From the NCBI RefSeq assembly GCF_000025925.1, contig NC_014033.1, positions 1,860,001-1,892,000 of the forward strand: a stretch of DNA of 32,000 nt. The letters run 5' to 3'. The stretch comes from Xylanibacter ruminicola 23 (GTDB lineage Bacteria > Bacteroidota > Bacteroidia > Bacteroidales > Bacteroidaceae). Both the position numbers and the translations under genes were made by a program. Every line of letters begins with the position of its first letter. The stretch's first letter is position 1. This document shows, one piece after another, positions 1,415-32,000 of the stretch. Below the pieces are notes generated by a model, which saw only the letters and a program-made list of their open reading frames with translations, searched no databases and was not told the origin of the DNA.

Positions 1415-4400
1415 ATGAGAGAAAAAATTGACTGTTTTTTGCCTTGCAACGACCTTGAGACAGCGCGCGATGTGATAGCGCAAATCAAGGGTAGCAAGAC
1501 TATTCAACATATCTGTTTGCTGGTAAACCAACCCCTTGAGGCCACAGACGAGGCCCTGAGCGATTGCGAGCAAATAGTAGTTAACGACCTGACAAGCAGC
1601 ACAACCCTACAGGCTATTTCAGAACATGCCAAAGCTGATTACGCCCTGTTGCAGATTCGTCCACGACAGATACAGATGGCCAAAGGCACACTCGACCGCA
1701 TGCTGCGTATCGCATCCGATTCGGATGCTGCCATGATCTACGCCGACCACAACGACCTGATTGATGGCAAGCTGCAGCCCCATCCTGTTATCGATTATCA
1801 GATAGGTAGTATCCGCGACGATTTCGATCTGGGCTCGCTCATCCTGGTTAAAACCAGTCTGCTGCACTGCTTTACCATGCAATGCAACGAGCACCCCTAT
1901 CAGTATGCTGCTGTTTATGCCCTGCGCTTGTTCCTGAGTCGTAAAGGCCGTATCTTCCACATTAACGAGAAGCTTTATACCGAGCAGGAGACCGATACAC
2001 GCGCCTCGGGCGAAAAGCAGTTCGACTATGTGAACCCACGCAATCGCGAAGTACAGATTGAGATGGAGCATGCTGCCACCGCCCACTTGGCTGCCATCGG
2101 CGCCAAAATCGACCCCACGTTCTATCGCCGCCCCGACTTTAACGAGCAGGAGTTTGATGTAGAAGCATCGGTGGTTATACCTGTTTACAATCGCGAAAAA
2201 ACCATTTGCGATGCTGTTAACAGCGCGCTGAGCCAGAAAACCAAATTTAAGTATAATGTGATAGTGGTTGATAACCACTCTACCGATAAGACGACCGAGT
2301 TGCTGCGTGGTTTCCACGACGAGCGACTTATCCATATCATCCCCGAGCGTAACGATTTGGGTATTGGTGGCTGCTGGAACATGGCCATCCACGACGACCG
2401 TTGCGGACGTTTTGCCGTGCAGCTGGATAGCGACGACCTGTACTCGTCGCCCAAAACCCTGCAGCAGATTGTAGATACCTTCTACAAGCAGAATGCCGCC
2501 ATGGTGATTGGTTCGTATCGCATGTGCGACTTCGACCTGAACACGCTGCCACCAGGACTCATCGACCACGCCGAGTGGACGGATGAGAACGGACCTAACA
2601 ATGCTCTGCGTATCAATGGTCTGGGTGCGCCACGCGCCTTCTTCACCCCACTGCTGCGCCAGGTTGGATTCCCCAACACCTCGTATGGCGAGGACTATGC
2701 GTTGGGATTGATTTTCTCGCGCCACTACCGTATCGGTCGTATCTTCAGCGAACTTTATCTCTGTCGCCGCTGGGGTGGCAACAGCGATGCAGCCCTCTCT
2801 ATCGAAAAGGTAAACGCCAACAACCTGTATAAGGACCAGTTGCGCTCGTTAGAGATTATGGCGCGCCAGCAGATGCTGCAGGGCAAGCAGGAAATGCTGA
2901 ACGATTCGCCCCTGATGCGATTCTTCAACCGTCAGTTAGAGAAGTGGGATGATGCCCGTCGCCGCTATCACGACCTGCGCAACGTGAAGACCCGCGAGTT
3001 GTCGGTAGGCACTTCAACCATGAAGGTGCAGTATAACCCCGCCCGTATCGTATCAACAGGCGCTAAGATTGACAAGCAGACACTGGCCGAGCGCCCCTGT
3101 TTCCTGTGCGAGCAGAATCGCCCCAAGGAGCAGGTTAAGAAATCTATCGATGGACAGTTCGACCTGCTGGTCAACCCCTTCCCCATCCTGCCCATCCACT
3201 TTACCATTCCATCGGTAAAGCACGAGCCGCAGTTGATTCGTAATGCCTATGGCGAGATTCATAAGCTGCTTACCGAGTATCCACAGATGATGGTATTCTA
3301 TAACGGACCAAAGTGCGGTGCTTCGGCTCCCGATCACGCCCACTTCCAGGGTGGCACATCAGGTGTATTACCCCTGCAGATGGCATGGGGCCGCTTGTCG
3401 CGCAGTCTGAAACCCATCCTGGAGCTGAATAACGAGGAGGGCATCTCGCTGATTGAGGAGTATCCCTGCCCCGCCCTGCTCATCCACAGCAAAACGCAAT
3501 ATGGCGACGAGCAGCTGTTCCGTCGTTTGTACGAGTCGCTGCCCATTAAAGAAGGCGAGCCCGAGCCAATGCTCAACATCGTAAGCTGGCGAAACGATGC
3601 CGATTACTACTCGGTGGTATTCCCCCGCGACAAACACCGTCCCGACTGCTACTACAAGGAGGGCTGCGAGCAATACATCATATCGCCAGGTGCTCTGGAC
3701 ATGGCAGGTTTCATCGTTACCCCACGTAAGGAGGATTTCGATCGCATTACCCCCGAGGTAGCCCTGGGCATACTTAACGAAGTATCGCTGCCAGCCGATG
3801 CGCTTCAACAGGTTATCGAACGCCTGAGAGCTACTCAAAATTCAATGGTCAATGGTCAATGTTCAATGAAAAAAGAGCCAAACGTTACCGTGGGTATCGT
3901 CAGTGGCGAAAAGATATCGTTCAGCCTTAACAAACCTTACATGGCTAAGGGCGAGGTGATTACCGGCGACCAGGTAGTTGAGTTTAGCGATGGCGGTATT
4001 CTGTGGCGTGGCACCCAGTATCGTAACCTGACATTTACCCCACAGACCGACGATGCCTCGTTCTCGCTCAACGATGTGACTATCGGCGTTAACTTCCACT
4101 GGGAGCGCAAGGAAACCCAGACCTTCGAGGGTACCCTGCGCATTGTGGTTGAGGCCGATAAGATTGTGGCCATCAACGAGTTGCCGGTCGAGAAGTATCT
4201 TACCAGCGTGATATCAAGTGAAATGAGCAGCACCTCGAGTGTTGAGTTCCTCAAGGCCCACGCCGTTATCTCGCGTTCGTGGCTGCTGGCACAGATTGAG
4301 AAACGCAAACAGCACGAAAGCGGTGGCGACAATTTCTTCTCGTTTACTAAGAGTGACCAGGAGTTTATCCGCTGGTACGACCGCGAGGATCATACCATCT

Positions 4401-5089
4401 TTGATGTATGTGCCGACGATCACTGCCAGCGTTACCAAGGCATCACCCGCGCCAACAACACCCATGTTGAGGAGGCTATCAGCCAGACTCGCGGTCAGGT
4501 GCTGATGTATGGCGACGAGATTTGCGACGCCCGTTTCTCAAAGTGCTGTGGTGGTCAGACCGAGGAGTTCCAATACTGCTGGGAAGATACCCCTAAGCCA
4601 TATCTCGTTTCGTTCCACGATCCTTACTGCAACACCAGCGATAAGCACATCCTTTCGCAGGTACTCAACGATTTCGATCAGGAAACCCCCGATTTCTATC
4701 GTTGGACGGTAAGCTACACCCAGCAGGAACTGTCGGAGTTGGTAAACCGCAAACTCAAGATCGACTTTGGTACCATTACCGACCTCATCCCCGTTGAGCG
4801 TGGCAAGAGCGACCGTATCTGGAAACTCAAGATTGTTGGTACCAAAAAGACCCTCACCATCGGTAAGGAGTTGGAAATCCGCCGTGCCCTGAGCGAGAGC
4901 CACCTCTACTCATCAGCCTTTGATGTTGAGAAAGATGGCGATAAGTTTGTGCTTAAAGGCAAGGGCTGGGGCCATGGTGTTGGCTTGTGCCAGATAGGTG
5001 CCGCTGTGATGGGCGAGCAAGGTCATCCTTACGATGATATCCTGCTGTTCTACTATCGCGGTGCCCAAATCAAGCGCCTCTACGATTAA
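1415..5089 (+). CDS. Triple-domain cell-envelope protein: family-2 glycosyltransferase + HIT/GalT-like (DUF4922-type) domain + SpoIID/LytB domain
   Basis: One uninterrupted 1224-codon frame. The GT-A/GT2 part has [32 protein letters not shown] and QLDSDD. The middle domain carries an HxHxQ box ([10 protein letters not shown]), as in GalT-branch HIT proteins. The C-terminal part begins at [14 protein letters not shown] and has SpoIID-type motifs ([29 protein letters not shown]). Confidence 0.8.
3841..3868. repeat. Heptamer micro-array, 4 units (ttcaatg gtcaatg gtcaatg ttcaatg), translated in frame as SMVNGQCSM
   Basis: Exact 7-nt phasing read directly from the sequence. The last ATG (3866-3868) is the Met that opens the SpoIID-type domain. 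Confidence 0.9.
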
Positions 5090-19371: not shown

Positions 19372-22300
19372 ATGAACTTCAAACAAACCCTCATACTGTG
19401 CCTGCTCAGCATCAGTAGCATGCTATCGGCACAAAACAAGATTCTAACCAACAGCCGCCATATCAGTTCGGCCGATGGCCTGCCAAGCAATCAGATATTC
19501 GACATGACACAGGATGCCGACGGCTATATCTGGATGGCCGCCGCCAACGGCTTGTGCCGATACGATGGCTACCACTTCTACAACATCTATAACCTGGGGC
19601 CCGAAAGCGACCCTATCCATGGCGTGGTGGGCTACGTGTTCCCCGACGACGATAAGCGCCACCTGTGGATGCGCACCAGTACCTACGTGTATTGCTGTTA
19701 CGATCTGCATGCAGGCTGCTTTATCGACTTTACCAACAAAGGCGACCATGCCCGCACCTATCGCAGATTTATACGTGGCAAGCAGGGTGTGGTATGGATG
19801 TTCGACGATGAGAGCGGTGTGCGCCGCGTAAAGGGTAATACCGACGGCCCCGTGAACTGTACCGACTATACCAAGGCTAATGGCGGACTGCCCATCAACC
19901 ACGTGAACGACGCTTTCGAAGATACACAGGCCCGCCTGTGGGCCATGACCTCATCGGGCATCACCATCATTGATGCCAAAGGCAAGGCGCGCACCATTGC
20001 CAAGGGCATCTTCTTCCGTCGCGGCATACAGATTGGCCGACAGATGCTGGCACTGACCAACACTGGACTGGTTTACACCTTCGATGAGCAGGGTCGCGAA
20101 TTGCGACGCATACCCATCGCTGCCGACGTGAACAATATCAATATGGTAACCGCCAGTTTCCAGTGGCACGGTTGCTGGATGATTATGACCAACAACCAGA
20201 CGATTATGGTTAACCCCAAACAGGGCACTGCAGCTGCCACCGAGCAGTATCACGTGCGTAGCGGTGCCGTGATGGAAGGATTGACCAACGACGATAACTA
20301 CTTTGTGAGCAACAGCACAGGTATACTGTACGTGTTCCCCGCCCAGGGCGACATGCGCGTGCTGAACCTGATGCAGGGCGTGAAATCAACCGTTGAACGT
20401 TTCCGTCGTTATAATATTAAGAAAGGTGCCGACGGCCAGTACTACATTGCCAGCTATGGTAACGGTCTGTTTGTGTACGACATCCAAAACGACCGCCTGC
20501 AGCACTATTCGGCCACATCGCCATGGGCTATCGTAGGCAACAGCTATCTGAACAACATCCTCATCGACCGCAGTGGCTGCATCTGGCTGAGCGAGGAGTC
20601 AACAGGACTCACCTGTATTCTGCCTCCCGACAAGACCAACGCCGACTATTTCTACCCGCAACCCAACCGTAAGGGCGATTGGAGTAATTTTGTGCGTATG
20701 GTAACCTACACGGGTGGCAACCGCGTACTGCTGAGCACGCGCGACAACATGCTGTACGAGCTGAACCCCACCTCGTGGCAAAGCGCCACAGCCACCACGC
20801 TGCCTGCTGCTGTTTACGCTTATTACAAGGACAGTCATGGCCACCAGTGGATGGGCACTCGCGGTGGCGGATTGTACATCGATGGTAAGCCCATCGAATT
20901 CCCATCCAGTCAGATATACGATATTACCGAAGACCCATTAGGCCGATTGTGGATTGCCACCTGGGGCGACGGACTGTTTGTGGTGCGCCTGGAGGCCGAC
21001 GGACTGCTGAACATCACACATCTGATGAAGCGCTCGTACAACGAGAGTCTGATACGTATCATACGCGCCGACAACCGTCACCACTACTGGCTGGCCACCA
21101 ACAACGGCGTGTATCATATCGATATGCTGAAGAAAACGCTGACCGACGACGATTTCATCAGTCATAACATCCAGCACGGCGACTTCCCCTTCGACGAGAT
21201 CTCATGTCTGATGCCCGACTCGGCTGGCAACATCTGGGTAGGCGGTCGTGGTGGTGGCTTGCAGAAGTGCCGCTACCAGGATGGCAAGTTCAGTATCCAG
21301 CAGGGCTACACCACCCACGATGGTTTGATTACCAACAATATCCTGAGCGTAACCTCCGACCGTCAAGGCAACGTGTGGGCAGGTACCGACAACGGCATTA
21401 CCTGTATCCGCAAGGATGGCAAGGTAAACTCGTATCAATTCGGTCATACACTCGAGAGCAACATCTATAGCGAGAACAGTACTGCTATGCTGCCCGATGG
21501 ACGACTGCTGTTTGGTACAGCCTACGGTATGATGATTCTGGAACCAGAGCGACTGAATGCCAGCACACCCGAGAAGGCTGGTCGACCCATCATCACCATG
21601 GTGAGCATTGATGGTGTGGCACGTTACCTTACCACCAGCGACCGCCGATTGGTACTGAGTCACGACCAGAACTCTATCGAATTAGGATTCTCGAACCTCG
21701 ACTATGCCGGCATCGCCTCTACCCAATACCGCTATTATATGGAGGGATTGGAACACGACTGGCGACAGCTTACCAGCGACAACAGTGCCCGCTACAACGG
21801 GTTGCCACCAGGCACCTACCAGTTCCACCTGAGTTCGCTGAACAAGAACAACCAGTGGAGCGAGGAGTATGTGTTTACGGTGATTATCCGTCAGCCTTGG
21901 TACAACACCTGGTGGGCTTGGCTCATCTACCTGTTTATTATTGGCATACTGTGCTGGTACTTCTACCGCTCATGGCGACGTAACTTCGAACTCGACCAGC
22001 AGATACGTGTGGAGAAAGAGCTTACCACCTTCCGTTTGAACTTCTTTACCCACATCGCCCACGAGTTCCGCACACCATTGGCCATCATCAGCGGTGCCGC
22101 CGACAAGCTCACCCAGAAGGGTAACGATACACAGGTATCGCGTTCGGCCGTGCAGACGGTGCGCCGAGGCACGCTGCGACTTACCAAACTAGTTAACCAG
22201 CTGATGGAGTTCCGACGTATCAACACAGGTAACCAGCGTTTGGCTGTGGTTGAGGACGACATCATCAAACTGGCACGTACTACCTGCGACGAGTTCCGCG

Positions 22301-23586
22301 AGGTGGCAGCCCGCAAGGATCAGTCGCTCACCTTTACCCCATTCGCCCATCAGCACCGACTGACGTTCGACCCGCACTTGATCGAGACCATTCTCTACAA
22401 CCTGCTCTCGAATGCTATCAAATACACCCCACAAGGTGGCAGCATCAGTCTGAAGGCCAAGCTTTCCGACGATCAGCAGCAACTGCAACTGATAGTAGAG
22501 GATAGTGGTCCTGGCATCAGCGAGCTGCAGATACCACAGCTCTACCAGCCCTTTATGCACGGCTACGTATCGCAAGGTGGTATGGGCATCGGATTGTACA
22601 CCGCCTATCAGTCGGCTCTGCTCCACAAGGGACGTTTAGCCTACGAGCGCATTGCTGCCGAAGGTGGCTCGCGTTTCATCGTTACCATCCCCGCCACTGC
22701 TGATGTTTATAGTGCCGACGACTATGCCGGCAGTACCGCCGTGAACACCCAGTACGAGCCCGAGCCTACGCCCGACCATATCCGTGAGCTGGCCCCCGTG
22801 GCCTTTAACGAGAACTATACCGTGGCTATCATCGAGGACGATCCCGACATGCTCGACCAGATTCGTGAGAGTGTGGGTCGCTATTTCCGTACCATCAGTT
22901 ACACCGAGGGAAAGAAGGCGCTGAGCGATATCGGCGAGCAGCAGCCAAGTCTGATTCTGTGCGATGTGATGCTGCCCGATGTAAACGGCTTTGAGATTGT
23001 GCGCCAGCTGCGTGCCAATGAGGCTACACGCAACACACCGATGATTATGCTTACCGCACTGGATGGCGACGACCAGCTGCTGCGTGGATACAAGGCCGGC
23101 GCCGACGACTATATGGTAAAGCCATGCAACTTTGAACTGCTGGTACTGCGCATTACCCAGCTGATTCAGTGGTACGGCCGCTTACATCAGAATGCACAAT
23201 CGCCAATGGTCAATGGTCAATCTTCAATGGTCAATGTCAATGCCCCCATCATCACCGACGAGGCCGACCAGCGTTTCCGTGAAAAGATGGAAACCATCGT
23301 GGCTCAGCGCTTAGGCGATGCCGACTTTAATGTAGATACCCTCGCCTCGCTGCTAAAAATGGGTCGCACCAAGTTCTATGGTAAGATGAAGGAGTTTACA
23401 GGCATGTCGCCCAATAGCTATCTGCAGAACGAACGATTGAAGCGTGCCGCCGAACTGCTTATCGAGGGCGATCTGAACGTTACCGAAGTAAGCTACAAAG
23501 TTGGTTTCCAATCGCCCACCTACTTCTACAAGTGCTTCAAAGAAAAGTACGGTGTTCCCCCCAGCAAATTCGGGAAAAGCAAATAA
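19372..23586 (+). CDS. Hybrid two-component system sensor kinase/response regulator with AraC output (HTCS), PUL regulator
   Basis: 1404 aa. It has a signal peptide, a periplasmic beta-propeller repeat region and a TM segment (WWAWLIYLFIIGILCWYFY). Kinase motifs: H-box FFTHIAHEFRTPL, N-box YNLLSNAIKYT, G1 EDSGPGI. Receiver domain (VAIIEDDPDM..LILCDVMLP). C-terminal AraC HTH (VSYKVGFQSPTYFYKCFKEKYG). Confidence 0.92.
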   Translation: MNFKQTLILCLLSISSMLSAQNKILTNSRHISSADGLPSNQIFDMTQDADGYIWMAAANGLCRYDGYHFYNIYNLGPESDPIHGVVGYVFPDDDKRHLWMRTSTYVYCCYDLHAGCFIDFTNKGDHARTYRRFIRGKQGVVWMFDDESGVRRVKGNTDGPVNCTDYTKANGGLPINHVNDAFEDTQARLWAMTSSGITIIDAKGKARTIAKGIFFRRGIQIGRQMLALTNTGLVYTFDEQGRELRRIPIAADVNNINMVTASFQWHGCWMIMTNNQTIMVNPKQGTAAATEQYHVRSGAVMEGLTNDDNYFVSNSTGILYVFPAQGDMRVLNLMQGVKSTVERFRRYNIKKGADGQYYIASYGNGLFVYDIQNDRLQHYSATSPWAIVGNSYLNNILIDRSGCIWLSEESTGLTCILPPDKTNADYFYPQPNRKGDWSNFVRMVTYTGGNRVLLSTRDNMLYELNPTSWQSATATTLPAAVYAYYKDSHGHQWMGTRGGGLYIDGKPIEFPSSQIYDITEDPLGRLWIATWGDGLFVVRLEADGLLNITHLMKRSYNESLIRIIRADNRHHYWLATNNGVYHIDMLKKTLTDDDFISHNIQHGDFPFDEISCLMPDSAGNIWVGGRGGGLQKCRYQDGKFSIQQGYTTHDGLITNNILSVTSDRQGNVWAGTDNGITCIRKDGKVNSYQFGHTLESNIYSENSTAMLPDGRLLFGTAYGMMILEPERLNASTPEKAGRPIITMVSIDGVARYLTTSDRRLVLSHDQNSIELGFSNLDYAGIASTQYRYYMEGLEHDWRQLTSDNSARYNGLPPGTYQFHLSSLNKNNQWSEEYVFTVIIRQPWYNTWWAWLIYLFIIGILCWYFYRSWRRNFELDQQIRVEKELTTFRLNFFTHIAHEFRTPLAIISGAADKLTQKGNDTQVSRSAVQTVRRGTLRLTKLVNQLMEFRRINTGNQRLAVVEDDIIKLARTTCDEFREVAARKDQSLTFTPFAHQHRLTFDPHLIETILYNLLSNAIKYTPQGGSISLKAKLSDDQQQLQLIVEDSGPGISELQIPQLYQPFMHGYVSQGGMGIGLYTAYQSALLHKGRLAYERIAAEGGSRFIVTIPATADVYSADDYAGSTAVNTQYEPEPTPDHIRELAPVAFNENYTVAIIEDDPDMLDQIRESVGRYFRTISYTEGKKALSDIGEQQPSLILCDVMLPDVNGFEIVRQLRANEATRNTPMIMLTALDGDDQLLRGYKAGADDYMVKPCNFELLVLRITQLIQWYGRLHQNAQSPMVNGQSSMVNVNAPIITDEADQRFREKMETIVAQRLGDADFNVDTLASLLKMGRTKFYGKMKEFTGMSPNSYLQNERLKRAAELLIEGDLNVTEVSYKVGFQSPTYFYKCFKEKYGVPPSKFGKSK
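23202..23242. repeat. Heptamer micro-array (about 6 units: gccaatg gtcaatg gtcaatc ttcaatg gtcaatg tcaatg) inside the HTCS ORF
   Basis: Read directly. It is translated as SPMVNGQSSMVNVN in the linker between the receiver and AraC domains. Confidence 0.9.
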
Positions 23587-23587
23587 C

Positions 23588-23624
23588 ATTCCCCTCCTTG
23601 AACTGACCAAGGAGGGGAATTTTT
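23588..23624. terminator. Bidirectional intrinsic terminator between the convergent HTCS and amidase genes
   Basis: A perfect 13-bp stem, attcccctccttg (23588-23600) / caaggaggggaat (23608-23620), with a 7-nt loop, followed by TTTT. Confidence 0.8.
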
Positions 23625-24045
23625 AAGGCTGCAGATCAGCGTACTCTTTTGTAACACTCTCGATACACGGGCAGGCCTTCATCGGGTTCAGGTCGTGGTG
23701 ACCTACGATCACCGCCTTGGGGTAACGACTGTGCAACTCGGTTAACAGCTGTCGCAAGGCTGCTTTCTGTTCCGGTGTGCGGGTGTCGGCTGGCAGATCC
23801 AGACAGTTCAAACCGCCCTCGTAGCACACCCCGATAGAGTACTTATTGTGGTTCTTGCAGTGTGCCCCAACCATCCATTCCGGCCTACCCTGCTCTATCT
23901 GTCCGTTACGACGCACCACGTAATGGTAGCCAATGCCGAGCTTAAAGCCTCGCTGGCGATGCCAGGTATCTATCTGGGCAACCGAGGATGTCTGGTTGGT
24001 TCGCACTGCCGAACAATGAATCACGATGAGGGTTATCGTCCGCAT
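23623..24045 (-). CDS. N-acetylmuramoyl-L-alanine amidase (Amidase_2 / AmpD-PGRP fold)
   Basis: 140 aa. LIVIHCSA..., GIGYHYVVRRNG, VGAHCKNHN.SIGVCYEGG and GHHDL..KACPC fit the zinc amidase_2 motif pattern. Confidence 0.8.
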   Translation of the reverse strand: MRTITLIVIHCSAVRTNQTSSVAQIDTWHRQRGFKLGIGYHYVVRRNGQIEQGRPEWMVGAHCKNHNKYSIGVCYEGGLNCLDLPADTRTPEQKAALRQLLTELHSRYPKAVIVGHHDLNPMKACPCIESVTKEYADLQP

Positions 24046-24736: not shown

Positions 24737-25309
24737 TTAGTCACCAATTGGTTCAGTACCGCCACCTGAGGTATTACCGCCACCACCTGTGTTACCACCA
24801 TTGCTTGGTGTGCTACCACCACCGGTAGAAGGTGAGTCATTCTCCGGCTCTGGGCGCAGCGAGGTGTCGTGAGTCTCCTCAAACACCACATCCTTCAACA
24901 AGGTCTTGGCATTCACATACTTCTGAACCACCTTACCGTTCTTCTCTGCAGAACCGGTTACGATACGCTCCACCTCGGGCTGGAACAGCACACGACGAGA
25001 GGTGATGGTGCTCGCAGTACAATTGTTGGCGTCGGACACACCGATACTCGAGAATCCTACCTTGAAGATGCCGATACCTGACAGACGAATCTTCTGTCCC
25101 ATCTCCAGGAAGTGCTTCATAGCAGCTCCCAGCTCGTCGAGAGCCGCCTTGATGTCGCTACGCTTCAGCGTGGCCTGTGTCTGGATAAAGTCGGCAATCT
25201 CGTCGGTCTCGATAAACTTCTGGTCGTACACTGGCTGTGCGTAGTACTTCAGATAACTCTTCGCATTGTGAGAGTTCATGTTCTGTGTCTTGATAAATTT
25301 CTGTGACAT
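24737..25309 (-). CDS. HU-like DNA-binding protein (Bacteroidales HU_HIG type) with Gly-rich tail
   Basis: 190 aa. The core LDELGAAMKHFLEMGQKIRLSGIGIFKVGFSS resembles the HU/IHF fold. The C-terminal tail is low-complexity: GGGSTPSNGGNTGGGGNTSGGG. Confidence 0.7.
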   Translation of the reverse strand: MSQKFIKTQNMNSHNAKSYLKYYAQPVYDQKFIETDEIADFIQTQATLKRSDIKAALDELGAAMKHFLEMGQKIRLSGIGIFKVGFSSIGVSDANNCTASTITSRRVLFQPEVERIVTGSAEKNGKVVQKYVNAKTLLKDVVFEETHDTSLRPEPENDSPSTGGGSTPSNGGNTGGGGNTSGGGTEPIGD

Positions 25310-25937: not shown

Positions 25938-27332
25938 CTAAAACAATGCGTCAAATGTGTCAAAAATGGTTTCGCCGCTTATCACCGATACCTCGTCCTC
26001 TGGCTTGGCTTCCTGGGCCATCAGGGTTCTGTTCAGGTCGATATCGGCACCACTATACGCCACCACGTTATAGCCACGCTCACCACGTGAGCGCACACTT
26101 ACAAAGCCCATGGCCTTCATGGCACGCCCCAGCTTGTTGGGTGTCAATCGGTGTATCAGCAAGCCGCCAATGGTTTGCATAATCTCCGAGGCACTCACAA
26201 ACACGCACGGTTCGTTCTTAGCAGGCACACGATAGAACTTGCTTACCAGTTCGCGCTCGGGTTTCGACACCTCGAACCGTTTGTTATGCAGCTGCACAAC
26301 ATCCATTTCCTTTTTCTCAAACCAGTAGTGGAACCCCTGCAGATACAGAGCATAGGCCTGGGCAAAGATCTCTTCGTGATGGATAGGATACTCGTAGGGC
26401 GAACGGATACTCTCCACCTCGAACGGTAACCAGCGGCGTGTACCCGTGTCGTCGTCGATAAACTGCAGGTTGTTACTGGTACCACAGTAGCTGGCTATGT
26501 GTACACGCCGTTCCGAATTGTGCGCATACGGTTTGCGGGCATCGGTAGCTTTTGTGGTCACAGCCCATTTCAGCCTACTCATTGCCTCTGTCTTCAGCGC
26601 ATCTATCTCATCCAGACAAATCAGTCCGAACGATGATAGTTTCAGCACCTCGTCCTTATCCATCTTACCGAAAGTAGAAGTAGAGTGGAAATAGGCCGAC
26701 AGTTCGGGAGGTATCAGACTCTCAAGCCAACGGGTTTTGTAGATACCCTGTTCGCCTACCAGCACCAGCACCTCCTCGTTCACCACTTTCTCCTCCAGCC
26801 ACCCTGCCACCACACCCACCAACCATTTGCGCAAACAGGCGTAAAACAGCAGTTGCTCGTCAGTACCGCCCTTTACTTGTACATCCATCGCCAGCGAGAA
26901 TATGGGGTTAGTCGTCTCGTCCCACGGCGGCAGTCGGGCCAGATAGGCTTTCAGCGGATTATACAACGGCACAAAATCAGAGTCGATAACCTGCCAGATT
27001 TTCTTGGGATTCACATCCTTTTGTTTCGACAGCATACTGCACAGCGAGTTCACCACCCTGTCGCTAATCTCGAACCATTGGCCAGGCAATCGCCATTCTT
27101 CCAATGGCGTTTTGCCCGTGGGATATTTAATCCCCATGGCCGCATACTCGCTGATTTCGGGCACTCGGAATTCGTCCTTACCCGTTATCACATTGTGACG
27201 CAGGTAGAGCGTGCTCATCAGGAAGTTTTGTATATCCTCCTCGGTGGCACGCACCTCGCGCCAGTTCTTTTTGTGAAAAGCGTCCCCTTGGGCCGAGCGT
27301 TGCTTATGCTCCTTTTGTTCGTTCTTAGTCAT
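25938..27332 (-). CDS. VirE/VapE-type primase-helicase-like P-loop NTPase of mobile-element origin
   Basis: 464 aa. Walker A-like LVGEQGIYKTRWLESL and Walker B LICLDEID, with an N-terminal region typical of Bacteroidales VirE_N/DUF3987-type proteins. Confidence 0.65.
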   Translation of the reverse strand: MTKNEQKEHKQRSAQGDAFHKKNWREVRATEEDIQNFLMSTLYLRHNVITGKDEFRVPEISEYAAMGIKYPTGKTPLEEWRLPGQWFEISDRVVNSLCSMLSKQKDVNPKKIWQVIDSDFVPLYNPLKAYLARLPPWDETTNPIFSLAMDVQVKGGTDEQLLFYACLRKWLVGVVAGWLEEKVVNEEVLVLVGEQGIYKTRWLESLIPPELSAYFHSTSTFGKMDKDEVLKLSSFGLICLDEIDALKTEAMSRLKWAVTTKATDARKPYAHNSERRVHIASYCGTSNNLQFIDDDTGTRRWLPFEVESIRSPYEYPIHHEEIFAQAYALYLQGFHYWFEKKEMDVVQLHNKRFEVSKPERELVSKFYRVPAKNEPCVFVSASEIMQTIGGLLIHRLTPNKLGRAMKAMGFVSVRSRGERGYNVVAYSGADIDLNRTLMAQEAKPEDEVSVISGETIFDTFDALF

Positions 27333-27451: not shown

Positions 27452-27748
27452 TCAGAACTCGGCATGTATCTCCACATCCTCAAAGCCGGGCACCGTAATG
27501 CTGATGCTGGCTGTGCGGATATTCTGCATGATATCGGGGTACAACGGATCGGAAACAGCCGATGGAGTGGCCGTAACATAGCCATCCACCTTGGTTGCAA
27601 AACGCTGTACACTATCGGCCGCTACTGTTCCGAGGGCCAACGACTCCTGATAAAACTTCACCATCTGTGGTGTTGAAACCTGATCTTCTGTTACCTGTTC
27701 GCAACTTATCACCAAACAGGCCGAGATGATTAAAAATAGTTTGCGCAT
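27452..27748 (-). CDS. Small lipoprotein, unknown function
   Basis: 98 aa with a lipobox (MRKLFLIISACLVISC). It has its own TATCTTTG box at 27784-27791 on the minus strand. Confidence 0.55.
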   Translation of the reverse strand: MRKLFLIISACLVISCEQVTEDQVSTPQMVKFYQESLALGTVAADSVQRFATKVDGYVTATPSAVSDPLYPDIMQNIRTASISITVPGFEDVEIHAEF

Positions 27749-27834
27749 AAGTAATTTTTTTAATTATTATTGCATTCGGGGTGCAAAGATACAAAAAATA
27801 TGGCACAAACCGGCATAAAAAGCATAAAAAATCA

Positions 27835-28149
27835 TCATAGCAATAGTGTTTTTAGCGAGGCAAACGAGGGGTTGAGGTTTGAGTTAAGGGTGAGCCAACG
27901 AATCAGGTCGTTTTTGCGAAAGCCACGGGCCATGATGTCAGGGCGTGCCAACAGGGCGCCCAGCTCCTGATAGATGATTTTCTTGCTGCCGCGCGGCAGG
28001 TCGCAGCGAAAATCCAGACGCTCTATCAGGCGCGCATGGCGGGGCGGGGTTTGCAACATGGGCGCAAGGCGACTGATCATCGCATCGTACTCCCGGTAAT
28101 ACTCACAATTTAAATAGTTGACTAACAGTCGGTTAGATTTGAATTTCAT
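27835..28149 (-). CDS. Hypothetical protein (104 aa), no recognisable motif
   Basis: An ATG-initiated ORF co-oriented with its neighbours. No family was recognised. Confidence 0.4.
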   Translation of the reverse strand: MKFKSNRLLVNYLNCEYYREYDAMISRLAPMLQTPPRHARLIERLDFRCDLPRGSKKIIYQELGALLARPDIMARGFRKNDLIRWLTLNSNLNPSFASLKTLLL

Positions 28150-28269: not shown

Positions 28270-29055
28270 TCAGATGGCTATACTGAATTTCACGCTGGTG
28301 CCCTTGGTGTAATGCGGGTCGATATACAGACTGCCGCCAAGCCGCTCTACCAGTGTGCGACTGATGTTGAGCCCGGTGCTGATGCGCCGCTTCATGTGGC
28401 GCACAGGGTTGAGCAGCGAGAAGATGGCTTTGCGACGCTCCTGACTGATACCACATCCCGTGTCGGATACCGACACCTCCAGGCAGTCGACCTGGTCGTT
28501 GGCCTCCACGCGTATCAACCCTTTGACTGTATATTTAACAGCATTCTCAAGCAGGTTACGCACCACCTTCTCCAGACATTCACGGTTGGTATGCACCGCA
28601 TAGAAATCAGGCATGCTCGACTTGTAGTCGACAAGCACACTCTCAGGCGCCCGTTTCTGGTATTCATCCACCAGTTCGCGACACAGCTGATTGACATACA
28701 CAAAGCCCAGCGGCAACTCCTCAGCCAGGTTCTCGTAATAGGTCAGCTCCACCATCTTATCGATGATGGCATCACGGCTCTGCGCATCGGTATGCTCGTT
28801 GAGTTCGCGGGCAGCCCAGTACATAAAGTGACGGCGTTCGCGCACATCGTCGACCAGCCGTTCGTTCTGACAGCGCAGTTTCTTCAGCTCGCGCCCGTCG
28901 TCGGCGCGCTGGCGTACCAGTTCATCGTTTCGCAGCTGCAGCTCGTCAATCTGCTTATGCCAGTGGTGATACATCACCAGCAGCGCCAAAGCCATGGCCA
29001 TCACCAGCACGACTGCTATCACACAATAACCACTCATCATCATAGGCCCAACCAT
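28270..29055 (-). CDS. Membrane-anchored histidine-kinase-like ATPase lacking the phospho-acceptor His (HK-like B)
   Basis: N-terminal TM segment (YCVIAVVLVMAMALALLVMY) followed by a coiled coil. The H-box position reads AARELNEH, with Arg where His is expected. The N-box (RNLLENAVKYT) and G1 box (SDTGCGI) are intact. Confidence 0.7.
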   Translation of the reverse strand: MVGPMMMSGYCVIAVVLVMAMALALLVMYHHWHKQIDELQLRNDELVRQRADDGRELKKLRCQNERLVDDVRERRHFMYWAARELNEHTDAQSRDAIIDKMVELTYYENLAEELPLGFVYVNQLCRELVDEYQKRAPESVLVDYKSSMPDFYAVHTNRECLEKVVRNLLENAVKYTVKGLIRVEANDQVDCLEVSVSDTGCGISQERRKAIFSLLNPVRHMKRRISTGLNISRTLVERLGGSLYIDPHYTKGTSVKFSIAI

Positions 29056-29838
29056 TTATATCTTAATACTGAATACAATCGAGGTGCAATCCTTGCGCTG
29101 CTGGTCGAGAAACATAGTGCCCCCAATCTTCTGGGTGAGCGCGTAACTGATACGCAGGCGCACACCAACAATCGTGTTGCACAGGTTACCGTCGTTGGGC
29201 AGCCGCTCAAACAGCACGTCTTTCATGTTCTCGGGTATCCCCACCCCGGTATTGCTTAACCGAAACACCAGATACTTGCCACTATCATCGGGCATCACCG
29301 ACAATTTAATATACCCTTCGTGGGTGAACTGCATCGCACTGACAATCAGATTCTTGAACAGCTTGCGCAGATAGCCCAGATGGGTGCGGATGACGAAGTC
29401 GTCGGCCAGCGAAGTCTCTACACACATCTGGACATTAGGATTATTCAGATAGCGTTCGCAGGTGTAGAACATATCCTGACAGAACATGTTAACCAGCACT
29501 TCGTCGTGACGAGGCACCTGCCCCAGATCGCCATACTGGGCCAGTTCGATGGCACAGTCCACCATCTCACCTACCAACGAGGACTTACTACGCACCTCAT
29601 GGCACATCATGTCCCAATCGCACTGATCCAACTTCAGTTCGCTGTTCATCAATATCTCCAAGTAACTGTCCACCCCCTGGTAAACAGCCTGCACGTCGTG
29701 GAGCACCTGATACAGCATCTTGGCCTTGGAATGCTCGCGACGAGCTTTCTTCATGGTGCTCACCAGCTTCTTCTGGTACTCCAGACTGTCAGGTCTGGGC
29801 ACCACCTTTTCATTATAGTTATATATCGTCGTTCCCAT
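29056..29838 (-). CDS. Soluble histidine-kinase-like protein with an H-box but degenerate ATP-binding motifs (HK-like C)
   Basis: H-box-like MMCHEVRSKSS. The N-box reads KNLIVSAMQFT, with Ser where Asn is expected. G1 reads SNTGVGI, with Asn where Asp is expected. It is a paralog of the downstream gene, and its stop codon abuts that gene's ATG. Confidence 0.7.
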   Translation of the reverse strand: MGTTIYNYNEKVVPRPDSLEYQKKLVSTMKKARREHSKAKMLYQVLHDVQAVYQGVDSYLEILMNSELKLDQCDWDMMCHEVRSKSSLVGEMVDCAIELAQYGDLGQVPRHDEVLVNMFCQDMFYTCERYLNNPNVQMCVETSLADDFVIRTHLGYLRKLFKNLIVSAMQFTHEGYIKLSVMPDDSGKYLVFRLSNTGVGIPENMKDVLFERLPNDGNLCNTIVGVRLRISYALTQKIGGTMFLDQQRKDCTSIVFSIKI

Positions 29839-29931: not shown

Positions 29932-30420
29932 TCATTTTATCAACACATTCTGCAGTTCGGCCAGCAGCACCATGCACTGCATGGGCGTCATCGAGGCCAT
30001 GTTCAACTGGCGGATACGCTCGGCCACATCGTGCTCAACAGGACCTTTGGCTACTGGTGGCTGCAACTCAGGATACACTGGCACCGTCGGCTGCCGCACG
30101 ACACCCTGAGGCACACTGCTACGCCAGATCTGAAACGACTGCTCGTCGATTGAGCTGTCTATTTTTATCGTTTTACAACCATCCCTGCAGTCCTCTATCT
30201 CGTGCCCCAAGCGGTGTAGCACCAACTTCGGGAAGCCTATATCCACTACATCCGAACCTACCACTTTTACAAATTTCCGTCTGACCTCATACTGTCGCAC
30301 ATGGTTCACAAACAGGTAGGCACTACGTTCGAAAGCGCGGTAGAATCCGCCCTCAGGCCATAGCCGGATTGTATTCTCGTTTTGCTGCTCGAAGGCAAGC
30401 TTTTCTTTCATTGTCGGCAT
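29932..30420 (-). CDS. MutS-domain-I-like mini protein (162 aa), candidate retroelement accessory factor
   Basis: TIRLWPEGGFYRAFERSAYLF...DIGFPKLVL parallels E. coli MutS ILLFYRMGDFYELFYDDA...PMAGIPYHAV. The C-terminal LNMASMTPMQCMVLLAELQ parallels the MutS C-terminal LTPxxAL..L motif. There is no ATPase domain. The start is taken at the ATG at 30418-30420, 25 nt after the RT stop. Confidence 0.6.
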   Translation of the reverse strand: MPTMKEKLAFEQQNENTIRLWPEGGFYRAFERSAYLFVNHVRQYEVRRKFVKVVGSDVVDIGFPKLVLHRLGHEIEDCRDGCKTIKIDSSIDEQSFQIWRSSVPQGVVRQPTVPVYPELQPPVAKGPVEHDVAERIRQLNMASMTPMQCMVLLAELQNVLIK

Positions 30421-30445
30421 ATCTTCAACTTTCTTTTTTAATACA

Positions 30446-31687
30446 CTACTTCTCGAATAATATCTCCAATTCCACTTCCAGGCGCGCCAGCTGTCGCATC
30501 TTCTCACGATACACTCGGCGCACACACACCTTGTATCTCTTACGGTTCATGCTCACATACATCACCTGATACCACTCAGGACTGATCCTGTCGAGCAGTT
30601 TCCTAACCTGGTTGTAAGCAGCAAAGTGGCGCATCATGCCAAGATAGGAGTTCATCGTAGAAGCAAACTCGTTCACATGCTCGCGTGCATAGTGCTCATC
30701 CGACTGAGCCAGACGATTGTAGCGCTCAATCTTGTCGATACAGGTGGCTATCGTGCGCCGGCTGATATAGGTGCGCCCTGGCATCACCATACCGCCAGTG
30801 AACAGTACGCCCTTGGAGTAGTGCTGCAGATACATCTTCTTGGGATGACGCCGCACACCGTTCCGGGCTGCCCATTTGTCGACAATCTCATCACGCATCC
30901 ATAGTAGCAGTTCCTTGTCGCGACTCACGAATATCATGTCGTCCATATAGTGGCCATAGCTCACCGACATACTCCAGAGACTGTCGGTTATCTCGTGGTC
31001 GAGATCGTCCATGAATACCAAGGCTGTCATCTGACTGATTACCTTGCCTATCGGCATACCATGCAGGCCGTCGCTGTGAAACAAACTCTTGTTGGGCGGC
31101 AAACCGTTCCAAGCTTTCAGCGGACTGTTACGCACACAATTCAGCTCAGGCCGGTCCATAATCACCACGCGCAGCAGCCATATCATCCACTCCAGGTCGG
31201 GACCACGGTATATCTGCCGTAGCAGACTGGCGAACTTGCGCCATGCAAGCTCCTTGGGCAGCGACATGAAGTACGACTGCATATCGAGCTTCATCACCCA
31301 GCAGTCGACCGTATAATTAGCTGACTGCTCTCTCACCATCTGCTCTACGCGCTGTATGCCATAGAGCGTGCCCTTGCCCACTCGGGTTGAGTAGTTGTCG
31401 TCGATGAACCGCTGCTCAAGAAAGGGCGTTACCCTCTGGGCGAAAACCGTGTCGACCACGCGGTCGCGAAAAGCTGCGCCGAAGATTTCCCGTTTCACGG
31501 GCTTATCGCTGACAAACACGATAGAGCGCGAAGGCTTGTAGGTACAGTTTTGCAACTCTTGCCACAGCTTCAGGCACTCCTCTTCGGCATTAATCTCAAA
31601 ACGAATAGCGTCTATCGTATTACCCTTGTGCCGCAAGCACAGCCAATAGGCTTCGTAGACCTCTTCGTAACTGACACCACATTTCAT
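30446..31687 (-). CDS. Reverse transcriptase, DGR-type
   Basis: 413 aa. AAFRDRVVDTVF (RT motif 1/2), KLDMQSYFMS (motif 3), GMPIGKVISQ (the (I/L)GxxxSQ signature of DGR RTs), YGHYMDDMIFV (catalytic YxDD), then RRHPKKMYLQHYSKGVLFTGG (thumb entry). Confidence 0.85.
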   Translation of the reverse strand: MKCGVSYEEVYEAYWLCLRHKGNTIDAIRFEINAEEECLKLWQELQNCTYKPSRSIVFVSDKPVKREIFGAAFRDRVVDTVFAQRVTPFLEQRFIDDNYSTRVGKGTLYGIQRVEQMVREQSANYTVDCWVMKLDMQSYFMSLPKELAWRKFASLLRQIYRGPDLEWMIWLLRVVIMDRPELNCVRNSPLKAWNGLPPNKSLFHSDGLHGMPIGKVISQMTALVFMDDLDHEITDSLWSMSVSYGHYMDDMIFVSRDKELLLWMRDEIVDKWAARNGVRRHPKKMYLQHYSKGVLFTGGMVMPGRTYISRRTIATCIDKIERYNRLAQSDEHYAREHVNEFASTMNSYLGMMRHFAAYNQVRKLLDRISPEWYQVMYVSMNRKRYKVCVRRVYREKMRQLARLEVELEILFEK

Positions 31688-31710
31688 TTACAAATAGTCA
31701 ATATTCCATA

Positions 31711-31830
31711 GGCGAGGACGGGGCGAACGCGTCGGTCCGTATTGGACTTAGTGTTGTTGCCGTTCAGATAGAGTTTACCATCGGTGTTGAAGTTCAGATT
31801 GAACGCATAGCCAGCACCCTTTCCACTCGA
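31711..31830 (-). repeat. Candidate DGR template repeat (TR)
   Basis: The minus strand reads SSGKGAGYAFNLNFNTDGKLYLNGNNTKSNTDRRVRPVLA. It has seven AAC/AAT Asn codons and a ..VRPV end, like the variable C-terminus of C-type-lectin/DUF1566-type DGR targets. It ends 24 nt upstream of the RT ATG, and no start codon or long ORF is attached. Confidence 0.6.
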
Positions 31831-32000
31831 ACAAATGTTATCAGTTGTCTTCTGTCTTTACTAACTGCACCGTTTACGCGACGGTCGTGTCAGTCGATAA
31901 CCCCTATAGATAATAGTTGACAGCTCTCTCCGCCAAGCCTTGACCGGGCGGACGCTCGCCATTTGGTGTTTGTTATTACTTTATTTAATGATCACTTATC

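Follow-up and report, generated by a model that had tools for sequence, protein, structure and literature searches.

We analysed a 32,000-nucleotide stretch of Xylanibacter (formerly Prevotella) ruminicola DNA (the window), whose right-hand end carries the reverse transcriptase (RT) and the template repeat (TR) of a diversity-generating retroelement (DGR). The results indicate that this is almost certainly a complete, canonical DGR, located on an integrase-bearing X. ruminicola island of about 16 kb and truncated by the right edge of the window. An initial annotation of the window had described a DGR core without a variable repeat (VR) or target gene. That claim is not true: an identical contig carries both the target gene and its VR just past the cut.

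The repeats and the target gene across the window edge

The locus was followed beyond the window by looking up contigs that encode exactly the window RT, which returned six loci (L001-L006). L001 (GCA_019973335.1), a 3.58-Mb X. ruminicola contig, matched the reverse complement of the window with 0 mismatches over 11,555 nt, and the last base of the window corresponds to L001 position 9688, 9 nt short of the avd stop. The anatomy can be read directly from this contig. On the same strand as the RT, the order is DUF3575, DUF3868/TPR, FimA-like, a 691-aa target, bAvd, TR, RT and an Msl-like gene, and a tyrosine integrase gene precedes DUF3575. The target gene (L001 7056-9131, minus strand of the window) carries the VR at its 3' end, and the two lie about 560 to 2,630 bases past the right edge. 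The bAvd accessory gene (150 aa, L001 9244-9696, minus strand of the window) contributes its last two codons and stop (GAT AAG TGA, window 31992-32000, minus strand), with the other 444 nt beyond the window.

A direct-repeat search of the region revealed one repeat family, whose copies at L001 9014-9126 and 9866-9978 are 852 nt apart. Of these, the window TR (window 31710-31822, minus strand) is the downstream one, a 113-nt core with 30 adenines that encodes KGAGYAFNLNFNTDGKLYLNGNNTKSNTDRRVRPVLA in the VR frame, where 7 of the 37 codons are AAY (Asn). The upstream copy is the VR (113 nt, window-equivalent about 32562-32674, same strand as the TR), which forms codons 654-690, the last 37, of the 691-aa target ORF (open reading frame) and is located about 560-675 nt beyond the window end. 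Direct comparison of the two copies in L001 showed 11 mismatches, 11/11 at TR adenines (hypergeometric P = 9.4e-8 for 30 adenines in 113 nt). This TR/VR pair is the defining DGR signature, in the canonical order target(VR)-avd-TR-RT. The VR with its adenine-only differences bears out the initial annotation in calling the locus a DGR and the segment its TR. The segment itself is real, with a homology-defined core at 31710-31822 (113 nt) in place of the proposed 31711-31830; it does stand directly upstream of the RT, and the spacer to the RT ATG (ATGGAATATTGACTATTTGTAA, window 31688-31709, minus strand) is 22 nt, not 24.

The same annotation had placed the target at a remote site, on the other strand or among lost genes. 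This would make the locus an orphan or domesticated DGR, with an RT and a TR lacking a nearby VR and acting on a remote target or in another role. The window taken by itself fits such a reading, as it contains no VR-like copy in its 32 kb and no long ORF visible upstream of the TR. Our adenine-tolerant scan of both strands agreed with the annotation, detecting no second copy in the 32-kb window besides the TR itself; the next-best site had 43/84 non-adenine positions mismatched, which is chance level. The reported stops in all three minus-strand frames within 31985-32000 are likewise present, and what fell was the conclusion drawn from them, that of an upstream region with nothing relevant in it. 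The stop in frame 1 at the edge (window 32000-31992) is the genuine stop of the 150-aa bAvd gene entering from the right, and the closed frames therefore mark the end of avd, not the absence of an upstream target. Because the TR lies only 178 nt from the window end, the window cannot show the canonical upstream parts of a DGR. Against an orphan element, the target and the VR precede the TR on its own strand in L001, the mismatches being confined to TR adenines, and the same arrangement was found in every contig long enough to contain it (L001, L002, L003, L013 and L007 to L010). A VR is thus present, and relatives keep the TR together with the RT. We therefore regard the orphan appearance as a window-edge artefact, because the identical contig carries the target and VR just past the cut, and an orphan or domesticated DGR is highly unlikely. 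As an edge effect, it gives no reason to infer anything unusual about DGR biology. A search for the exact adenine-tolerant TR pattern in genome, metagenome and viral contig collections returned 0 matches, the relevant genomes evidently lying outside these collections.

Between avd and the TR lies a 169-nt intergenic spacer (window 31823-31991, minus strand), presumably the 5' part of the TR-containing transcript. The avd-TR-RT 5' region, this spacer included, matched no Rfam family, and RNA folding revealed no unusual stability (z = +0.6). Because the gap between TR and RT is only 22 nt, any RNA priming element for the RT/Avd complex placed 3' of the TR would have to overlap the RT coding sequence.

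Reverse transcriptase, accessory genes and relatives

The RT is a 413-aa ORF (window 30446-31687, minus strand) with a Pfam RVT_1 match (E=4.5e-14). The three motifs named in the initial annotation were all located in it: FRDRVV at residues 73-78 (window 31454-31471), PIGKVISQ, a DGR-type (I/L)GxxxSQ motif, at residues 212-219 (window 31031-31054), and the catalytic YMDD (YxDD) at residues 247-250 (window 30938-30949). Among PDB sequences the RT gave a single match, 8ub7_A, a 328-aa 'Reverse transcriptase' (E=1.5e-9), which is presumably the RT of the Bordetella phage DGR. Relatives of the RT were sought in a viral contig collection and none was found.

We considered whether the RT belongs to another class, such as a group II intron, retron or defence-associated DRT/Abi RT, with the TR/VR repeat being incidental. 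The RT did give weak, sub-threshold matches to group II (TIGR04416), Drt2, retron and UG models. None of these came near its family cutoff; group II TIGR04416 reached 61.6 bits against a cutoff of 300. Moreover, Rfam detected neither an intron RNA nor an msr/msd family at the locus, an Avd gene adjoins the RT, and the adenine-only mismatches recur in five independent loci. An RT of another class is accordingly so improbable that it can practically be set aside. The TR/VR pair together with Avd is a stronger argument for DGR membership than the RT sequence matches.

A search of species-representative genomes with the RT provided four usable relatives. Two of them, L007 (RT 75% identity) and L008 (68%), are metagenome-assembled genomes of rumen Prevotella, and the other two, L009 (46%) and L010 (39%), are from more distant Bacteroidota. 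Each carries a VR followed by a TR directly upstream of the RT. The VR/TR mismatches fell at TR adenines in 12/13 cases in L007, 10/10 in L008, 22/22 in L009 and 22/23 in L010. L007 and L008 have a TR-RT gap of about 30-50 nt, compared to 22 nt in the window. In L007 the gene order is DUF3575, a TPR protein, a FimA-like pilin, a target with a weak FimA match, bAvd, RT, a small Msl-like ORF and a VapE-like gene.

The ORF that begins 25 nt past the RT stop (window 29932-30420, minus strand) encodes 162 aa and was tentatively assigned as an Msl-like (MutS domain I-like) accessory gene from its conserved position and from family-level MutS_I matches. It is kept after the RT in L001-L006 and L013, and a divergent form is present in L007. 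Its family comprises at least 1,410 clusters at 50% identity (E<=0.001). When 119 family members were scanned singly, Pfam MutS_I was matched in 49/119 (best E=2.7e-6), and no other family was matched in more than one member. By its size and its place after the RT, the 162-aa protein would fit the Msl/MSL type of DGR accessory, with membership at the family level only.

Several results on the two accessory genes speak against the reading of a canonical DGR. The bAvd match (Pfam E=9.4e-10, 39.4 bits) falls just below the 40-bit Pfam cutoff. The window Msl-like protein itself matched MutS_I with E=0.12 (residues 1-48 to profile positions 2-49), and hhalign of its family with E. coli MutS gave the expected register (residues 3-29 to MutS 14-40) without significance. 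Its AlphaFold2 model was poor (predicted local distance difference test (pLDDT) 53), too poor for a fold search. Searches of the Msl-like protein against Pfam, NCBIfam, PADLOC and PDB yielded no match at threshold, and sequence and profile searches against PDB returned nothing meaningful.

Target protein, VR variation and possible homing features

The N-terminal signal of the 691-aa target ends ...VSSC, with a lipobox-like cysteine as read from the sequence. An AlphaFold2 model built from 37 homologues had a mean pLDDT of 72. The pilin fold was recovered directly by Foldseek comparison of this model with PDB, where the top matches were Bacteroides/Parabacteroides 'cell adhesion'/fimbrial proteins and P. 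gingivalis FimA (4gpv, E=1.3e-17; 6jzk, 5e-14; the FimA structures 6jzk/6jzj/4q98, 5e-14 to 5e-12; also 4eps and 4qb7). Pfam P_gingi_FimA was matched in shorter homologues of 383-401 aa, whose alignment covers the N-terminal half of the target. Because of the FimA matches and of P_gingi_FimA in these shorter homologues, we assign the N-terminal ~400 residues to a type V pilin. The features of type V pilins found here are a lipoprotein signal, a FimA-like fold, and DUF3575, DUF3868 and P_gingi_FimA (weak) as neighbours. The target is most likely a pilus tip adhesin, a predicted lipoprotein with a putative C-terminal ligand-binding domain. The only hint of a C-type-lectin fold in the VR domain was a weak Lcl_C (DUF1566-type) match in 5/37 homologues (best 5.6e-4), a point against the reading of a canonical DGR. 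Whole-protein Foldseek was dominated by the pilin domains, and Foldseek of the model against viral structures gave nothing informative on the C-terminal domain.

Differences between strains were confined to the VR under the same TR, as direct comparison showed. L013, a metagenome contig, shares 97.4% identity with L001 over 8.4 kb and carries a TR that is 100% identical to that of the window. Between this TR and the L013 VR there are 11 differences, 11/11 of them at TR adenines, and the L013 VR is unlike the L001 VR at 10 positions. At the protein level, PRU_1583, the orthologue in X. ruminicola 23, departs from the 691-aa L001 target at only 10 residues, which all fall within 661-683 and in codons with a TR adenine. 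A third VR was found in L014 (about L014 5591-5703), with 10 adenine-site changes and one G-to-T change. Across 23 full-length homologues, as many as 9 residue types occur in the columns that TR AAY/AAA codons encode, and the scaffold around these hypervariable columns is conserved (GAGYAF.L.F.TDG.LYL.G..TKS.T..RVRPVLAF). Since near-identical lineages carry different VRs alongside the same TR, the element has, on these sequence comparisons, been active in nature.

On the established DGR pathway, from which we infer the RNA and cDNA steps and a role for the Msl-like protein, an RNA spanning the TR would be reverse-transcribed by the RT with Avd, the adenines being copied unfaithfully. The adenine-mutagenised cDNA would then replace the VR, that is, the last 37 target codons, and leave the TR unchanged. 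About a dozen residues would in this way be randomised on the C-terminal ligand-binding domain of a pilin-fold lipoprotein.

Two observations sit uneasily with adenine-specific, continuing diversification. The first is R683L, which lies at a non-adenine TR position (CGA to CTA in the L014 DNA, and the same change in the strain 23 protein); the window TR base at this position (about window 31733) is G. R683L recurs in the VRs of at least two lineages; either their TR is polymorphic, or the DGR has made a rare substitution outside adenines. The second is that L001, L002 and L003, from three samples, carry one and the same VR. The VR variation speaks for activity across lineages, and it does not imply present mutagenesis in this strain. 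The shared VR also favours the view that the DGR looks intact and is by now inactive, a fossil whose strain-to-strain VR diversity records past activity; some Bacteroides DGRs, moreover, are tightly controlled or silent in vitro (bioRxiv 10.1101/2024.11.15.621889). Against a fossil, the RT with its catalytic motifs, Avd, the Msl-like gene, the TR and the target are all intact, and different VRs occur in near-identical lineages (strain 23, 0 differences outside the VR; L013, 97.4% DNA identity), which implies that the VR turns over faster than the background diverges. We consider a fossil element unlikely, though deserving of some weight, and retain the reading of a complete DGR that has been active.

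Downstream of the VR we found features of a possible target site. The same GC-rich sequence, CGACGCGTTCGCCCCGTCCTCGCCT, closes both VR and TR at the 3' end, and the two part right behind it. Downstream of the VR (within L001 9126-9214) the DNA is AT-rich and contains overlapping palindromes, and a perfect 11-bp GC hairpin (CCTCCCCCCGC/GCGGGGGGAGG, L001 9178-9201) lies about 52 nt after the VR, with no T-run behind it. A similar hairpin of the CCTCCCCCC/GGGGGGAGG type is present at a comparable place after the VR in L007 and L008. In the phage BPP-1, retrohoming is efficient only with a hairpin/cruciform directly behind the VR (PMC3240598). By analogy, the hairpin is better read as a candidate cruciform for homing than as an intrinsic terminator, and the conserved inverted repeats downstream of the VR may act in homing.

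The island and its place among known DGRs

Two polysaccharide-utilisation loci (PULs) flank the roughly 16-kb island that carries the DGR and the pilus operon. One edge of the island carries the tyrosine integrase (L001 1692-3389 region), with a weak Cas2-like small ORF beside it. On the other side are a VapE-like gene (window 25938-27332), an HU-HIG gene (24737-25309) and an Amidase_2 gene (23623-24045), all on the minus strand. A search for direct repeats flanking the island found none of at least 12 nt. No conjugation genes were present in the 41.7 kb examined, and the island is not demonstrably an integrative and conjugative element.

Following the Msl-like gene in the X. ruminicola loci is a histidine-kinase-like ATPase of 260 aa without a sensor domain (Pfam HATPase_c; window 29056-29838, minus strand), and next to it a second one of 261 aa with a hydrophobic N-terminal stretch (Pfam HATPase_c, E=2.2e-17; window 28270-29055, minus strand). 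This tandem HATPase_c pair, without recognisable sensor or receiver domains, follows the DGR in all X. ruminicola loci, and L007 has IS200-like and HTH genes in its place. The two genes are probably neighbours outside the DGR. Pilus operon and DGR (Avd, RT, Msl-like gene) form a self-contained cassette on this compact island. A bolder proposal is that a small mobilisable element of a new kind spreads putative 'evolvable adhesin' modules among rumen Prevotellaceae, and that the adjacent sensor-less HATPase_c pair times diversification; we hold this to be quite improbable.

The kinase-like genes and the VapE-like gene are separated by two small conserved ORFs on the minus strand (window 27452-28149), one of 98 aa, which has a lipoprotein-like signal, and one of 104 aa; neither matched any family. 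The remaining part of the window (1-23586) is ordinary Bacteroidota chromosome, with RlmN, a major facilitator superfamily transporter, a LysR regulator, a large GT2/DUF4922/SpoIID fusion protein (1415-5089) and a pectin-type PUL comprising GH35, SusD, SusC, a PL11 rhamnogalacturonan lyase and a hybrid two-component regulator (19372-23586).

Compared with the Bordetella phage prototype BPP-1, the X. ruminicola DGR shares the order target(VR)-avd-TR-RT, adenine-specific changes, a GC-rich 3' end common to VR and TR, and inverted repeats downstream of the VR. Unlike BPP-1, it is located on a chromosomal island rather than in a phage, it has a pilin adhesin as target where BPP-1 has a tail fibre, it carries the additional Msl-like gene, and its TR-RT gap is only 22 nt. 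The BPP-1 hairpin stands immediately beside the VR, whereas the GC hairpin here is separated from the VR by the AT-rich palindromic stretch.

The 'Architecture D' described by Wu et al. (Nucleic Acids Res 2018) contains MSL, a MutS-like gene of 112-283 aa, which co-occurs with avd and never with HRDC (PMC5758913). The avd-TR-RT core and the small Msl-like gene of 162 aa directly after the RT resemble this architecture, with MutS homology here at the family level only (49/119 members). A literature search found no paper tying DGRs specifically to X. ruminicola.

The closest resemblance in features is to Bacteroides. DGRs with Avd and Msl in this genus (Bfr, Bth and Bun) diversify type V pilus tip adhesins (bioRxiv 10.1101/2024.11.15.621889). 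Like them, the X. ruminicola element has a lipoprotein target of type V pilin fold whose VR is C-terminal and whose gene adjoins pilus genes of the stalk/anchor type, both an Avd and an Msl-like accessory gene, and a cassette on an integrase-bearing island. Its TR has 30 adenines, compared with a reported range of 30-45 in the Bacteroides elements, and Foldseek of its target recovered the PDB relatives 4EPS and 4QB7 that are cited for them (bioRxiv 10.1101/2024.11.15.621889). Unlike the Bacteroides elements of the human gut, this one is hosted by rumen Xylanibacter/Prevotella, and its island spans only about 16 kb, on which tyrosine integrase, VapE-like, HU and amidase genes are found. These results indicate that the Avd and Msl type of pilus-adhesin DGR, known from human-gut Bacteroides, also occurs in rumen Xylanibacter/Prevotella, a modest extension of its host range.

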